A stretch of DNA of 4,186 nt from Naegleria gruberi (taxonomy: Eukaryota). The notes under the pieces were generated by a model that was given only the letters and a program-made list of their open reading frames with translations, was not told where the DNA came from and did no database searches. Position 1 is the first letter of the stretch; the number at the start of each line of letters is the position of its first letter. Made by a program: the position numbers and the translations under genes. Location of the stretch: NCBI GenBank assembly GCA_000004985.1, contig GG739192.1; one strand, written 5' to 3'. Of the stretch, positions 1 through 4,186 are shown one piece after another.

Positions 1-6
1 TAAAAA

Positions 7-1329
7 ATGGTTGAAAACACTCTTTTCCAACCACGACAAGAACCAATTCATAAACGTTCAACAACTACTAGTAGAACATTCAATGTTCAAGGTGATAATA
101 ATTTATTAATTCAAAATCCAAATGTTTTACCTGAAGATGAAGAACAAGTTTATGAAGAATTAACTATATTTGATACACCACCTAAATCTAATTTATTATT
201 AAAACAACAACATCAATTTGATGATAATATTTTATATAATAGAAGTAATACATTTCTAAATGAAGATATAACTGATATTAATGAAAATTTAAATTTAAAT
301 AGTAAACAATTTAATTTATTTTATAAAAATAATATTTTATATATTTTATTAACATATTATTTATTTATTTGTGTTAAATTTCATAATAATACATTAATAT
401 ATCCAAATTCAATTTCTAATTTTTATTTATTTTTTAAAGATCAAATATTAACACCTATTTACAATTATGGAATTCCTAAAGATTTCAATATAATTATTTT
501 ATTAAGTATTTCAAATATTATTAATTTATTAAATGTATTTAATTATAATTTATATTTAAATTGGTTATTAAATTTATCAAGTATTTTAATTTTACATTTT
601 ACTAATTTATTTCCAATTACGGAATTTTATGAACATTATATTTCTTTATTTACAGTTACTATTTTATTAAATAATTTTATTAAAGTTAAGGAATTTAATC
701 ATTATAATTTATTTAGTATTTTATCAATTAGTATTTTATTTAAATATTATCAATTAAATGATTTTTCTTTATTAGGAAATTTAAATATTATTTATAATTT
801 ATTAATTTGTAATTTTGTATTTTTAAATAATATTAAATTATCAATCAATAGATTAGCATTTTTAAATACATTAAATTTATTAAATATGAATTTTAATGAA
901 ATTAATATTTTATCTATTTGTATATTTTTATTAGGTTACTATATATGGACAATATCAAATTTACAATATAAATATTTTAGAAATTATATTTCTTTTAATA
1001 ATACTGCTACTACTAATATTAAATCATTTCCATATTTTTTATTTAATTCTACAAAAACACCTAGATTTATATCTTCCAAAGATGGAAATTATATTTTAGC
1101 TGATAGTGGATGGTTAACATGTAGAAATATTGATTTATTTGGTGAATTATTAATTATATTTTCTATTTTTATTTTAAATATTAATATTATTTCGTTTATT
1201 ATATTTATTTGTAATGTTATTGATATTATTAATTTGGAAAATGAAAGAAATAATTTAAATATGAATAATAGTGATTATATTAAATATTGTAATTTAGTTC
1301 CTTTTAGATTGGTACCTTTTATTTATTAG
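7..1329 (+). CDS. Complete 440-aa multi-pass membrane protein. It is a divergent member of the sterol reductase (ERG4/ERG24, lamin-B receptor, TM7SF2, DHCR7) family, and the canonical signature residues are substituted.
   Basis: A 1,323-nt ORF stays open in extremely AT-rich DNA, where random sequence would hit TAA/TAG/TGA within tens of codons. The ATG at 7 sits in an A-rich context (taaaaaATGg) with an in-frame TAA at 1-3, and the stop is TAG at 1327-1329. The N-terminal ~100 aa are hydrophilic, followed by about 330 aa of strongly hydrophobic I/L/F/N/Y-rich segments consistent with multiple TM helices. The C-terminus '...ILADSGWLTCRNIDLFGEL...NERNN...DYIKYCNLVPFRLVPFIY' aligns by eye with the sterol-reductase C-terminus as I recall it for lamin-B receptor and ERG24: 'LLVSGWWGFVRHPNYLGDL...HREARDE...EKYCQRVPYRIFPYIY'. 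The SGW, R, G[DE]L, KYC and VP[FY]R[IL]xP[FY]IY-end positions are shared. Family membership is from recollection of those sequences and was not searched. Confidence 0.6.
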   Translation: MVENTLFQPRQEPIHKRSTTTSRTFNVQGDNNLLIQNPNVLPEDEEQVYEELTIFDTPPKSNLLLKQQHQFDDNILYNRSNTFLNEDITDINENLNLNSKQFNLFYKNNILYILLTYYLFICVKFHNNTLIYPNSISNFYLFFKDQILTPIYNYGIPKDFNIIILLSISNIINLLNVFNYNLYLNWLLNLSSILILHFTNLFPITEFYEHYISLFTVTILLNNFIKVKEFNHYNLFSILSISILFKYYQLNDFSLLGNLNIIYNLLICNFVFLNNIKLSINRLAFLNTLNLLNMNFNEINILSICIFLLGYYIWTISNLQYKYFRNYISFNNTATTNIKSFPYFLFNSTKTPRFISSKDGNYILADSGWLTCRNIDLFGELLIIFSIFILNINIISFIIFICNVIDIINLENERNNLNMNNSDYIKYCNLVPFRLVPFIY

Positions 1330-1330
1330 A

Positions 1331-1336
1331 AATAAA
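1331..1336 (+). promoter_or_regulatory. Candidate AATAAA polyadenylation signal for the upstream membrane-protein gene
   Basis: A canonical AATAAA hexamer lies 2 nt after the TAG stop at 1327-1329. Dictyostelium mRNAs have short 3' UTRs. AT-rich hexamers occur by chance in this DNA, so confidence is low. Confidence 0.3.
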
Positions 1337-1414
1337 ATTGTATTTGTAATTTATATTATATTAGATTTCATGATTAGTTTATCAAATATGGTTTATCAAC
1401 TAATTTTATGTGCT

Positions 1415-1485
1415 CGTCTCGTGGTGTAATGGTAGCATAGTGGACTTTGAATCCATTGACGGAGGTTCGATTCCTCCCGAGACGG
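1415..1485 (+). tRNA. tRNA-Gln, anticodon UUG, nuclear type, 71 nt including the discriminator
   Basis: The cloverleaf was folded by hand. The acceptor stem is CGTCTCG (1415-1421) paired with CGAGACG (1478-1484), a perfect 7-bp helix. The D stem is GTGT/GCAT around the D loop AATGGTA, which carries GG. The anticodon stem is GTGGA/TCCAT with loop CTTTGAA, giving anticodon TTG at 1447-1449. The variable loop is 4 nt (TGAC). The T arm is GGAGG-TTCGATT-CCTCC and the discriminator is G1485. The stretch TGGTGTAATGGT-AGCA...TGGACTTTGAATCCA closely resembles human tRNA-Gln-TTG as I recall it. Confidence 0.88.
1422..1474 (+). promoter_or_regulatory. Internal RNA polymerase III promoter of the tRNA: A box 1422-1432 (TGGTGTAATGG) and B box 1464-1474 (GGTTCGATTCC)
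   Basis: The B box matches the GGTTCGANTCC consensus exactly. The A box is a reasonable fit to TRGCNNAGTGG. Both sit at the canonical tRNA positions 8-19 and 52-62. Confidence 0.6.
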
Positions 1486-1500
1486 TAACGTGGCGAGCCA

Positions 1501-2847
1501 TNNNNNNNNNNNNNNNNNNNNNNNNNNNNNNNNNNNNNNNNNNNNNNNNNNNNNNNNNNNNNNNNNNNNNNNNNNNNNNNNNNNNNNNNNNNNNNNNNNN
1601 NNNNNNNNNNNNNNNNNNNNNNNNNNNNNNNNNNNNNNNNNNNNNNNNNNNNNNNNNNNNNNNNNNNNNNNNNNNNNNNNNNNNNNNNNNNNNNNNNNNN
1701 NNNNNNNNNNNNNNNNNNNNNNNNNNNNNNNNNNNNNNNNNNNNNNNNNNNNNNNNNNNNNNNNNNNNNNNNNNNNNNNNNNNNNNNNNNNNNNNNNNNN
1801 NNNNNNNNNNNNNNNNNNNNNNNNNNNNNNNNNNNNNNNNNNNNNNNNNNNNNNNNNNNNNNNNNNNNNNNNNNNNNNNNNNNNNNNNNNNNNNNNNNNN
1901 NNNNNNNNNNNNNNNNNNNNNNNNNNNNNNNNNNNNNNNNNNNNNNNNNNNNNNNNNNNNNNNNNNNNNNNNNNNNNNNNNNNNNNNNNNNNNNNNNNNN
2001 NNNNNNNNNNNNNNNNNNNNNNNNNNNNNNNNNNNNNNNNNNNNNNNNNNNNNNNNNNNNNNNNNNNNNNNNNNNNNNNNNNNNNNNNNNNNNNNNNNNN
2101 NNNNNNNNNNNNNNNNNNNNNNNNNNNNNNNNNNNNNNNNNNNNNNNNNNNNNNNNNNNNNNNNNNNNNNNNNNNNNNNNNNNNNNNNNNNNNNNNNNNN
2201 NNNNNNNNNNNNNNNNNNNNNNNNNNNNNNNNNNNNNNNNNNNNNNNNNNNNNNNNNNNNNNNNNNNNNNNNNNNNNNNNNNNNNNNNNNNNNNNNNNNN
2301 NNNNNNNNNNNNNNNNNNNNNNNNNNNNNNNNNNNNNNNNNNNNNNNNNNNNNNNNNNNNNNNNNNNNNNNNNNNNNNNNNNNNNNNNNNNNNNNNNNNN
2401 NNNNNNNNNNNNNNNNNNNNNNNNNNNNNNNNNNNNNNNNNNNNNNNNNNNNNNNNNNNNNNNNNNNNNNNNNNNNNNNNNNNNNNNNNNNNNNNNNNNN
2501 NNNNNNNNNNNNNNNNNNNNNNNNNNNNNNNNNNNNNNNNNNNNNNNNNNNNNNNNNNNNNNNNNNNNNNNNNNNNNNNNNNNNNNNNNNNNNNNNNNNN
2601 NNNNNNNNNNNNNNNNNNNNNNNNNNNNNNNNNNNNNNNNNNNNNNNNNNNNNNNNNNNNNNNNNNNNNNNNNNNNNNNNNNNNNNNNNNNNNNNNNNNN
2701 NNNNNNNNNNNNNNNNNNNNNNNNNNNNNNNNNNNNNNNNNNNNNNNNNNNNNNNNNNNNNNNNNNNNNNNNNNNNNNNNNNNNNNNNNNNNNNNNNNNN
2801 NNNNNNNNNNNNNNNNNNNNNNNNNNNNNNNNNNNNNNNNNNNNNNN
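1501..2847. other. Assembly gap: a 1,347-nt run of N with a sized estimate. It is unsequenced and should not be read as biological sequence.
   Basis: The run of n is contiguous and 1,347 long rather than the conventional 100, which suggests a scaffold gap with an estimated length. It begins 16 nt after the tRNA discriminator and ends exactly at the start of an (AAT)n tract inside the xdh reading frame. Confidence 0.95.
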
Positions 2848-2849
2848 AT

Positions 2850-4186
2850 GATAATAATAATAATATTAATGATATTAATGAAAATAATATTAATGAAAAT
2901 AATAATGATAATAATAATAATAATAATGATAATAATATTAATAATATTAATAATAATAATAATTCAAAAGTTAAAAGTTTAATTATTGGATCATCTATTA
3001 CAATAAGTAATTTAGAAGAATTTATTAAAAAACAAATTAAAATATTACCAAAATATCAATCACAAAGTTTAGAATGTATTTTACATCAAACAAAATATTT
3101 TGCATCTACACCTATTAGAAATGCAGCATGTTTAGCAGGTAATATTATAACTGCTAGTCCTGCAAGTGATTTAAATCCATTATGGGTTGCATTGGATTGT
3201 AATTTAAAAATTATGCAAATGGATGGTCATGTTAAAACTATTCCATTTAAGGAATTTTTTACTGGATATAGACAAGTACAATTAAAAAAGAGTGAATTAT
3301 TAATACATTTAGAAATACCATTACCACAATTAGATAATAATAATAATACAATACAATTAGTTAAATCATTTAAACAATCTAAAAGAAGAGAAGATGATAT
3401 TGCCATTGTTACATCTGCTATGAAAATTAAATTATTTAAAAATAATAATTTAAATAATATAAATAATAATAATTTAAATAATATTAATAATAATAATTCT
3501 AATTCTAATAATAATAATATAAATAATAATAATATAAATAATAAATATTATATTCAAGATATAAAATTAGTATATGGTGGTATGAATGCATATACAGTAT
3601 CAGCAGAAAAGACACGTCAATATTTAATAGGTAAAGAATTAAATGATGAAATATTTAATGAATCAATTGAATATTTAATTAAAGATTTACCATTAGCTTC
3701 AAATGCACCTGGTGGAATGATTGAATATAGAAAAACACTTTCATTATCTTTTTATTATAAATTTTATTTATTTTTATTAAAAGAATTAAAAATAAGAGAA
3801 TTAAATCAAGATGAAGAATCAGTTTTATTAAATCATCATTACATTCCAAGAATATATCCAAAAGGTGAACAATTTTATTCAAATACAATTGAAATTGGAC
3901 AATCTATTGGAAAATCAATTTTACATCAATCATCAAATATTCAAGTAACAGGTGAAGCTAAATATGTAGATGATATACAACCTATATATGGACAATTATA
4001 TGCAGCATTAGTACAATCAAGTAAACCATTAGCATTAATTAAATCAATTTCATATGATAAAGCATTATCAATGAAAGGTGTAATTGGTTATGTTGATTAT
4101 AGAGATGTTAAAGGACATAATAGAGTTGGTGCTGTTATACCTGATGATGAAGAATTATTCATTTCATTGAAAACTACTTGTATTGG
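2850..4186 (+). CDS. xdh: Partial xanthine dehydrogenase/oxidase CDS, internal fragment. It covers the C-terminal half of the FAD-binding domain, the linker, and the start of the Mo-pterin (a/b hammerhead) domain. It is open at both ends, cut by the gap on the 5' side and by the window end on the 3' side.
   Basis: Frame 3 is uninterrupted from the gap edge to position 4186. The translation carries XDH motifs in the correct order against human XDH as I recall it. '[27 protein letters not shown]' matches '[24 protein letters not shown]'. 'FKQSKRREDDIAIVTSAM' matches 'FKQASRREDDIAKVTSGM'. 'LVYGGMNAYTVSAEKT' matches 'LCYGGMANRTISALKT'. 'SNAPGGMIEYRKTLSLSFYYKFYL' matches '[24 protein letters not shown]'. 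'VTGEAKYVDDIQ...LIKSISYDKALSMKGVIGYVDYRDVKGHN...KTTCIG' matches 'ASGEAVYCDDIP...[29 protein letters not shown]...KVTCVG'. No intron-like interruption appears in the resolved part. Confidence 0.92.
2853..2963 (+). repeat. In-frame Asn-rich low-complexity tract of (AAT)n type, about 37 codons: NNNNINDINENNINENNNDNNNNNNDNNINNINNNNN. It lies within xdh, just upstream of the conserved 'IIGSSITIS' FAD-domain segment.
   Basis: An AAT/GAT/ATT codon run read in the xdh frame, with no stop codon. This is the typical Dictyostelium poly-Asn insertion. It abuts the 3' edge of the assembly gap. Confidence 0.8.
3441..3542 (+). repeat. Second in-frame Asn-rich insertion in xdh, 34 codons: NNNLNNINNNNLNNINNNNSNSNNNNINNNNINN. 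It sits between the conserved 'RREDDIAIVTSAM' and 'YGGM' segments of the FAD domain.
   Basis: Codons read directly in frame 3. The corresponding human segment, as recalled, is a short non-repetitive loop, 'RVLFKPGTTEVQELAL', so this is a lineage-specific low-complexity expansion. Confidence 0.8.

Follow-up and report, generated by a model that had tools for sequence, protein, structure and literature searches.

Scaffold GG739192.1 of the heterolobosean amoeba Naegleria gruberi, the whole 4186 bp of which (positions 1-4186) are referred to here as the window, comprises an open reading frame (ORF), a transfer RNA (tRNA) gene, a run of N and a fragment of a xanthine dehydrogenase gene. The ORF, at 7..1329 on the plus strand, is a complete, intronless coding sequence of 440 amino acids (aa) plus stop, and the ORF list, its openness statistics, its homologues and its matches to PF01222 and to the bacterial delta-14 sterol reductase MaSR1 identify the product as a divergent membrane protein of the ERG4/ERG24 sterol-reductase family. 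It is a real, conserved gene, with demonstrable homology, clear residue replacements and an intact copy in four species (N. gruberi, N. fowleri, N. lovaniensis and Willaertia magna). From the residues replaced in the pocket for reduced nicotinamide adenine dinucleotide phosphate (NADPH), we infer that catalysis has probably been lost.

The ORF begins at the first ATG past an in-frame TAA at 1..3 and contains no stop codon, over a stretch in which each of the other five frames contains 27-81. At this composition, 440 codons without a stop have a probability of 4e-20, and in 2000 shuffles open runs reached 129 codons at most. The reading of this DNA made from its letters alone (hereafter the sequence-only reading) had described a body extremely rich in I, L, N and F and near the AT-only codon limit, and the counts agree: 269 of the 440 codons consist of A and T only, guanine-plus-cytosine (GC) content is 15.4% and 4.3-4.5% at third codon positions (GC3), N, L, I and F account for 54% of the residues, and FYMINK residues for 49.5%. 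One substitution would turn any of 168 of the 440 codons into a stop, and 269 of 3960 single-base changes are stop-creating, none of which is present at a nonsynonymous divergence (dN) from the nearest orthologue of about 0.5-0.6. This avoidance of nonsense codons is strong evidence for selection on the frame. The whole scaffold is a strong composition outlier, the xanthine dehydrogenase fragment having about 14-25% GC with poly-Asn tracts, as compared with a published 35% for the N. gruberi genome and 37% (GC3 32%) for the N. fowleri orthologue. Its composition is Dictyostelium-like and its phylogeny that of Naegleria; an AT-rich region, accelerated evolution and mis-binning are candidate causes.

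Family membership is evident from several directions. When the protein was compared by phmmer with all Protein Data Bank (PDB) sequences, the sole protein matched was MaSR1 (4quv), with an expectation value (E) of 1.6e-5 over aa 350-440 and a weak second stretch at the motif of the first transmembrane helix (TM1). PF01222 (ERG4_ERG24), with a curated gathering cut-off of 27 bits, matches the C-terminal 140 aa at E 4.2e-7 and 29.5 bits over profile positions 309-432, while Pfam scans of the full-length 440 aa (E up to 10) and of aa 101-440 gave no match. Since the isolated C-terminal fragment does match, the full-length miss presumably reflects the HMMER correction for biased composition and not missing homology; had the lack of a PF01222 hit for the whole protein been taken as refutation, as was proposed in the sequence-only reading, the outcome would have been a false negative. 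Full-length membership is transitive, in that the W. magna protein (P0003) matches PF01222 at 237 bits over profile positions 8-432. Canonical members score 384-432 bits and the W. magna protein 237 over its full length; N. fowleri reaches 37 bits, at the C-terminus only, and the window protein, whose 29.5 bits are seen only with the isolated C-terminus, has the lowest score in the clade among the members scanned. On the strength of the MaSR1, PF01222 and N. fowleri/W. magna matches, a chance likeness in low-complexity sequence is rejected.

An AlphaFold2 model built from a shallow, 9-sequence alignment has a mean predicted local distance difference test score (pLDDT) of 64.6 and a predicted template modelling score (pTM) of 0.61, with most of the core at 70-90. 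It places aa 1-98 below a pLDDT of 50, as predicted disorder, and aa 99-440 in a helical bundle, where the dips in confidence (226-232 and 276-281) coincide with the junctions of two deletions described below. Foldseek against the PDB ranks 4quv first (E 1.3e-8, template modelling scores of 0.59/0.66, about 400 columns); ICMT, the next hit at E 0.48, and SRD5A2 were rejected as closest fold, with E of about 0.5-7. Because the input alignment included canonical reductases, the fold match is partly guided, and the predicted structure is compatible with the MaSR1 fold and is not independent proof of it. The MaSR1 match, the PF01222 score and the superposition of the model on MaSR1 together bear out the C-terminal ERG4/ERG24 resemblance that had been noticed by eye.

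Homology to the canonical family (MaSR1, ERG24/TM7SF2/LBR C-terminal domain, ERG4 and DHCR7) spans the whole membrane body. On the plus strand, as are all features of the ORF, the body is preceded by a hydrophilic N-terminal extension (aa 1-98; 7..300), delimited by low pLDDT and by the alignments, which occurs in all four clade members and not in canonical reductases and in which no Pfam domain was found. The TM1 block ILLTYYLFICVKFHNNTLIYP (aa 113-133; 343..405) is homologous to MaSR1 LVYYLWICVTYYQGELVF, as seen in the first phmmer domain against 4quv and in the alignments. The protein shares with the canonical family a predicted fold of roughly 10 helices, the TM1 motif YYLxICV, the helix with GYYIW...N.Q..F(R/K), Arg356 (MaSR1 numbering) and the C-terminal YC..VP..(L/I).P.IY, of which VP..(L/I).P.IY is kept in the retained family C-terminus YIKYCNLVPFRLVPFIY (aa 424-440; 1276..1326), the segment covered by the MaSR1 and PF01222 matches and by the alignment. 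Unlike the canonical family, it carries a disordered N-terminal extension of ~98 aa, has lost signature 1 and the EKFGW/Asp257 loop by deletion, has signature 2 and the HRExRD cluster replaced, and lacks Tyr241.

An HMMER scan of 1.84 billion representatives returned two strong relatives, N. fowleri FDP41_009022 (P0002/P0009, 555 aa; E 2.4e-53) and W. magna ABK040_004223 (P0003; E 2.2e-26), beyond which the list holds only canonical sterol reductases, with E values between about 1e-5 and 1e-3. When the N. fowleri protein served as query, N. lovaniensis C9374_013669 (P0018, 605 aa) was found in addition, and no second N. gruberi orthologue. Word-indexed protein search with the window protein, in which low-complexity words filled the candidate list, returned only P0001, a chimeric public model of the same locus; a W. 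magna plus N. fowleri profile, searched in the same index at too strict a threshold (E up to 1e-10), missed P0002 and retrieved P0003 and P0017 alone, the latter a canonical metagenomic protein. For the orthologues, annotation goes no further than hypothetical or transmembrane protein, despite precomputed PF01222 matches. In N. fowleri and W. magna the gene is a single exon and its locus translates exactly, and the N. lovaniensis protein is full length; no orthologue shows the frame disruption that would mark a pseudogene, and the three intact orthologues, together with a frame that has stayed open over so many near-stop codons, uphold the earlier view of a maintained and not a decaying gene.

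In a neighbour-joining tree built from the four clade proteins with seven canonical reductases, the branching is (W. magna,(window,(N. fowleri, N. lovaniensis))), as in the species tree, and the four-member and Naegleria nodes both have 100% bootstrap. The W. magna protein is nearer to canonical reductases (241 bits to P0004, 220 bits to MaSR1) than to the Naegleria members (154-172 bits), while the best match outside Naegleria, for the Naegleria clade proteins, is that of W. magna. This asymmetry is the pattern expected of one slow-evolving member beside fast-evolving ones. As far as databases show, the clade is limited to the heterolobosean amoebae Naegleria and Willaertia. The dictyostelid source assumed in the sequence-only reading is rejected: the contig is recorded as N. 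gruberi, no dictyostelid appears in the 1.84-billion scan, the close homologues are those of N. fowleri, N. lovaniensis and W. magna only, and the tree agrees. With 440 aa against 553-605 aa, the window protein is 110-165 aa shorter than its orthologues. Large Thr/Ser/Gly-rich loop inserts occur in P0018 and P0009, including at the signature 1 site and between the last helices, and such low-complexity inserts do not occur in the N. gruberi copy; loop length is plastic across the clade, and the signature-2 block is fixed.

To place the replacements, MaSR1 residues 26-427 were rebuilt from the HMMER alignment and aligned with the clade and six further canonical sequences, and the per-site comparison given here (MaSR1 numbering) takes MaSR1 and 7 other sequences as canonical. 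Residue roles in MaSR1 were taken from papers that cite the structure paper. As described in PMC4951196, MaSR1 N359 and R395 correspond to LBR N547 and R583 in the NADPH pocket, N359 hydrogen-bonding a phosphate oxygen. Neither of the LBR changes N547D and R583Q restores cholesterol synthesis, and NADPH binding is severely reduced in both, the effect of N547D being ascribed by the authors to possible charge repulsion between Asp and phosphate (PMC4951196). Catalysis is proposed to depend on Tyr241 and Asp363 as a pair, and Asp257 is conserved throughout (PMC12489058). Cofactor-lining residues in ScERG24 include K335, R339, H368, N370, Y371, D374, R406, D410, K417 and Y418, and the cofactor-lining positions fall in MaSR1 on N316, K319, R323, H357, N359, Y360, D363, R395, D399, K406 and Y407.

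Of the residues with which the working enzymes bind NADPH, the protein has lost most. At K319, where canonical members have K or R, the window and N. fowleri have Y and W. magna has W; at N359, canonically N or H, all three have D (Asp376 in the window protein). Among the canonically invariant positions, Y360 is L in the window (Leu377) and in N. fowleri and F in W. magna, and D363 is E throughout (Glu380). R395, the counterpart of LBR R583, is L (Leu410), T and K in the window, N. fowleri and W. magna, respectively; in the same order, R398 is E (Glu413), N and T, D399 is R (Arg414), R and E, and C403 is N, Y and N. The invariant D257 is deleted in the window and kept as D in N. fowleri and W. 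magna. The catalytic Tyr241 of MaSR1 (ScERG24 Tyr257; PMC12489058), which is Y in seven canonical sequences and F in one (P0004), is I in N. fowleri and in the window, as Ile267 at 805..807, and Y in W. magna. The net charge over 11 charged pocket positions is +3 to +5 in canonical members, 0 in N. fowleri and W. magna, and -1 in the window protein.

Signature 2, expected as LLxSGWWGxxRH(P/M)NYxGDL, reads ILADSGWLTCRNIDLFGEL in the window protein and lies in the remodelled segment NYILADSGWLTCRNIDLFGELL (aa 361-382; 1087..1152), inside the clade's most conserved stretch, as located by the alignments and the site comparison. The sequence-only reading was right to call it degenerate, with His357 (now Asn374), Asn359, Tyr360 and Asp363 all replaced and Arg373 kept; it was mistaken about the second Trp, as W369, counted from the conserved Arg, aligns with MaSR1 W352 (the second Trp), and it is the first Trp that is lost, at a position that varies among canonical members too. 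Downstream, in the HRExRD...C..KYG motif, HREKRD is replaced in the alignments and the site comparison by NLENER (aa 409-414; 1231..1248), K406 by N, and Y407 and G408 are absent; the loss of this cluster had been correctly seen, with the aligned counterpart being N409-L-E-N-E-R414 and not the 'NERNN' first given. Signature 1, tested as YDxFxGxxLNPRIGxxDLKxFxExRPG, is absent from the window protein, where just 'YNLFS' aligns to YDFFM. It was unrecognisable in the first inspection, and the alignment shows it (MGxxLNPRIGxxDLKxFxExRPG) to be deleted outright at the junction of aa 237/238 (715..720; low pLDDT at 226-232); the 'IYNYGIPKDFN' that had been offered as its best remnant is instead the TM1-TM2 loop with the family-invariant Pro157. 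The same signature is kept in W. magna and is poly-Thr in N. fowleri. At the second junction, aa 274/275 (826..831; low pLDDT at 276-281), the alignments and the site comparison place a deletion, unique to the window copy, of the TM6-TM7 loop with EKFGW and Asp257. Column by column, against MaSR1 and the canonical sequences, what is found is a member of the sterol-reductase family whose cofactor and catalytic signature is degenerate. The features that the window protein shares with its orthologues are the N-terminal extension, the changes N359D and D363E, an aromatic residue in place of K319, and the loss of R398 and C403; compared with them, it is far more AT-biased and without loop inserts, and W. 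magna is much less derived.

The rebuilt pocket is also where the protein has changed least within Naegleria. Over the whole protein, identity between the window and N. fowleri is 33-48%. In windows of 20 residues it reaches 85% at aa 361-380 and 65% at aa 341-360, and is 5-50% in the remainder, save aa 301-320 at 70%. The conserved stretch follows the pattern SFPYFL..T.TPR..SS.DG.YILADSGWL.CRNIDL.GELL, in which N. fowleri and N. lovaniensis are identical, and the equivalent segment of the real enzymes builds the cofactor pocket. A pocket that would lack NADPH-binding chemistry and yet is the most constrained segment suggests re-use and not abandonment; the protein's best-conserved part being the rebuilt segment, the pocket would still be in use. 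By the Nei-Gojobori method, omega is about 0.45-0.5 between the window ORF and N. fowleri and about 0.37 between the N. fowleri and W. magna genes; the synonymous sites are saturated and skewed in composition by the AT drive, and these values carry no weight here.

Canonical ERG24, ERG4 and DHCR7 are listed for N. fowleri as well as for N. gruberi, at 71-86% identity, in a table where other sterol-pathway proteins of the same species pair are 69-90% identical (PMC6136796 S1 Table), so that the known reductase steps are already covered. No 3-ketoreductase or C22-desaturase was identified in Naegleria, and reduction at C7 was not seen there (PMC6136796). The clade protein, 33-48% identical between N. 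fowleri and N. gruberi, is an extra paralog that evolves much faster than these canonical enzymes.

On balance, we favour the reading that this is a lineage-specific, fast-evolving ERG4/ERG24 paralog which is probably no longer an NADPH-dependent sterol reductase and is kept for a role that uses its remodelled pocket and perhaps the disordered N-terminal tail. The protein keeps the roughly 10-helix fold, as predicted, and has gained a disordered N-terminal tail of ~100 aa. Its cytosol-facing cofactor pocket has been rebuilt: where canonical enzymes hold the NADPH phosphates with basic residues and the Asn, aromatic, neutral or acidic residues stand instead. The Naegleria members have, in addition, lost the proposed proton-donor Tyr, and the window copy two conserved loops. 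Because the pocket is rebuilt, the Tyr lost and the loops deleted, the protein most likely carries out no NADPH-dependent sterol reduction, and its pocket is probably in use for a different ligand or partner; that it binds, without reducing, a sterol or lipid in the endoplasmic reticulum (ER) or nuclear envelope is speculative.

Several observations weigh against this reading. The canonical comparison set is small (8 sequences), and the pocket residues R356, W352, N316, Q318, R/K323 and Y414 are still present. Asp to Glu at 363 and, in W. magna, Arg to Lys at 395 are conservative changes, and position 359 is not strictly invariant, as ERG4-type enzymes have His there. W. magna, the least derived member, has Tyr241, Asp257 and signature 1 and could remain an enzyme. 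The structural model has a mean pLDDT of only 64.6 on an alignment that already held canonical reductases, omega against W. magna is about 0.8-1.0 (about 0.45-0.5 against N. fowleri) with saturated synonymous sites, and FDP41_009022, the N. fowleri locus tag, was found in none of the papers searched.

Of the other explanations, the one that survives best, though we regard it as rather unlikely and as most plausible for W. magna, is a reductase that is still active with altered specificity. Since the lost residues are mainly those expected to bind phosphates, such an enzyme might draw hydride from NADH or some other donor; alternatively, its substrate might be another double bond or lipid, in a branch of sterol metabolism peculiar to Naegleria. 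Some sterol steps in Naegleria are without an assigned enzyme (PMC6136796). That the pocket segment is the most conserved in the clade is what would be expected of a working active site, and the retention of R356, W352, N316, R/K323 and Y414, the mildness of D363E and the presence of Tyr241, Asp257 and signature 1 in W. magna point the same way. However, Asn359 to Asp is exactly the change by which LBR loses cofactor binding, R395, R398 and D399 are all replaced, the proposed proton-donor Tyr241 is lost in both Naegleria lineages, and the window copy is without Asp257, the EKFGW loop and signature 1; in addition, the protein evolves at about twice the rate of canonical sterol enzymes compared between N. 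fowleri and N. gruberi.

We consider it very unlikely that the N. gruberi copy alone has been recently inactivated and is decaying under extreme AT pressure, with no stop yet, beside functional orthologues. Its 440 aa, against 553-605 in the others, make it the shortest member, and it is the most degenerate one; it carries two core deletions found in no orthologue, has the lowest Pfam score among the clade members scanned, and lies, at 15% GC and 49.5% FYMINK, on a tiny gapped scaffold with no correct gene model. Nevertheless, the frame has no stop despite 168 near-stop codons of 440, a dN of about 0.5-0.6 and saturated synonymous sites, the deletions are in-frame and fall in loops, AlphaFold2 still gives a MaSR1-like bundle, and a signature-2 block 85% identical to that of N. 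fowleri is hard to square with neutral decay. Most improbable is a contig from an unsampled AT-rich organism, as contaminant or mis-binned sequence, carrying the orthologue of another lineage: although GC of about 15-25% against 35% for the genome, poly-Asn tracts and an identity to N. fowleri far under the 69-90% of other sterol-pathway proteins would fit it, the NCBI record is N. gruberi, the gene branches where N. gruberi should, outside N. fowleri and N. lovaniensis, with 100% support, the N. fowleri protein finds no other N. gruberi orthologue, and the 1.84-billion scan holds no dictyostelid or other relative.

The favoured reading of a non-catalytic paralog has a precedent in Drosophila LBR (dLBR, CG17952), which likewise joins an N-terminal extension to the ERG4/ERG24 domain, and which has lost sterol C14-reductase activity and been retained under selection, as stated in PMC2478713, citing Wagner et al. 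2004. dLBR is the orthologue of a known enzyme, has a charged, lamin-binding N-terminal domain and belongs to a sterol auxotroph host; Naegleria, unlike it, is a sterol prototroph with the full canonical set, the clade protein is an extra paralog, and its loss of activity is deduced from residues. An LBR-type N-terminal domain (Tudor plus RS/charged) was not found in the 98-aa extension, which is acidic and of low complexity and not basic or RS-rich. The human LBR alleles offer a second comparison: all four clade members have Asp at the site equivalent to N547D, and at the site of R583Q a non-basic residue is found in the window, N. fowleri and N. lovaniensis and Lys in W. magna. The disease alleles are single changes in a canonical enzyme, whereas the clade has them fixed among many pocket changes. 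The Asn-to-Asp change of human LBR that causes Greenberg dysplasia is here fixed and conserved.

We would tentatively go further and suggest, as a possibility that is by no means the expected one, that the clade represents an undescribed functional class within the sterol-reductase fold, with a repurposed NADPH pocket, deprived of its phosphate-binding basic residues, as its most conserved segment, maintained since before the Naegleria-Willaertia split beside the complete canonical pathway. Such a pocket might bind another ligand or partner; the protein could, for instance, be a sensor of sterols or lipids, resemble a transporter, or act as a scaffold that the disordered acidic N-terminal tail anchors. 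Pseudo-enzyme paralogs are common, and hence such a protein is unsurprising in principle; what the clade provides is a clean, testable natural series. Among the papers searched, none pairs 'sterol reductase' with 'pseudoenzyme'. If true, the favoured reading would provide a natural sterol-reductase fold without NADPH chemistry in an organism that makes sterols, and the graded series from W. magna through N. fowleri and N. lovaniensis to N. gruberi would allow one to ask which parts of the fold are needed in non-catalytic roles. It may also matter in N. fowleri, a lethal pathogen in which the sterol pathway is a drug target, and in which one PF01222 protein is probably no reductase.

The remainder of the scaffold is separate from the protein gene. 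A tRNA-Gln(UUG) gene, called by ARAGORN and matched by Rfam RF00005 at 68.8 bits, lies on the plus strand at 1414..1486 and starts 85 nt 3' of the ORF stop codon. It is followed by an assembly gap, a strandless run of 1346 N in the sequence at 1502..2847, and by the xanthine dehydrogenase/aldehyde oxidase gene fragment on the plus strand at 2850..4186. The translation of this fragment is one open frame of 445 codons with FAD-binding (PF00941), CO_deh_flav_C (PF03450) and a/b-hammerhead (PF01315) parts and long Asn-rich inserts, and it is open at both ends, running off at the N gap and at the scaffold end. No tRNA was found within 10 kb of the N. fowleri orthologue, no tRNA or xanthine dehydrogenase gene near the N. 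fowleri and W. magna genes, and none of the neighbours of these two orthologues is in common with scaffold GG739192.1.

P0001, the one database protein of this contig, of 450 aa and entered as 'predicted protein, partial [Naegleria gruberi]', is a chimeric model that joins 7-300 (ORF aa 1-98), across the 1346-N gap, to the xanthine dehydrogenase frame at about 2973-4180, and whose second 'intron' (about 3630-3782) cuts out 51 conserved residues. As the public model is a chimera, the 440-aa product is missing from databases; in an exact-sequence look-up, neither the 440-aa ORF nor P0001 was on record. The 440-aa ORF should replace the chimeric N. gruberi model at this locus.

Two minor observations may be added. 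In the N-terminal extension, which is otherwise poorly conserved, the window protein (EDEEQVYEELTIFD; 130-175, aa 42-56), P0009 (QQEYYLMSEDLQEE; aa 55-75) and P0003 (SEEQEFLTATE; aa 75-90) loosely share an acidic-aromatic patch, which is reminiscent, as a resemblance of pattern alone, of the FFAT-like motifs that bind VAP at ER contact sites. In a JGI metagenome scan with the clade motifs, no environmental clade members were found, and the 3 loci retrieved are all of canonical bacterial type with intact signatures. These loci (L003-L005, on ERZ1370068 contigs of one metagenome assembly) are near-identical canonical MaSR1-like reductase genes, and the contigs probably derive from a sterol-producing bacterium of which several copies or strains are present.

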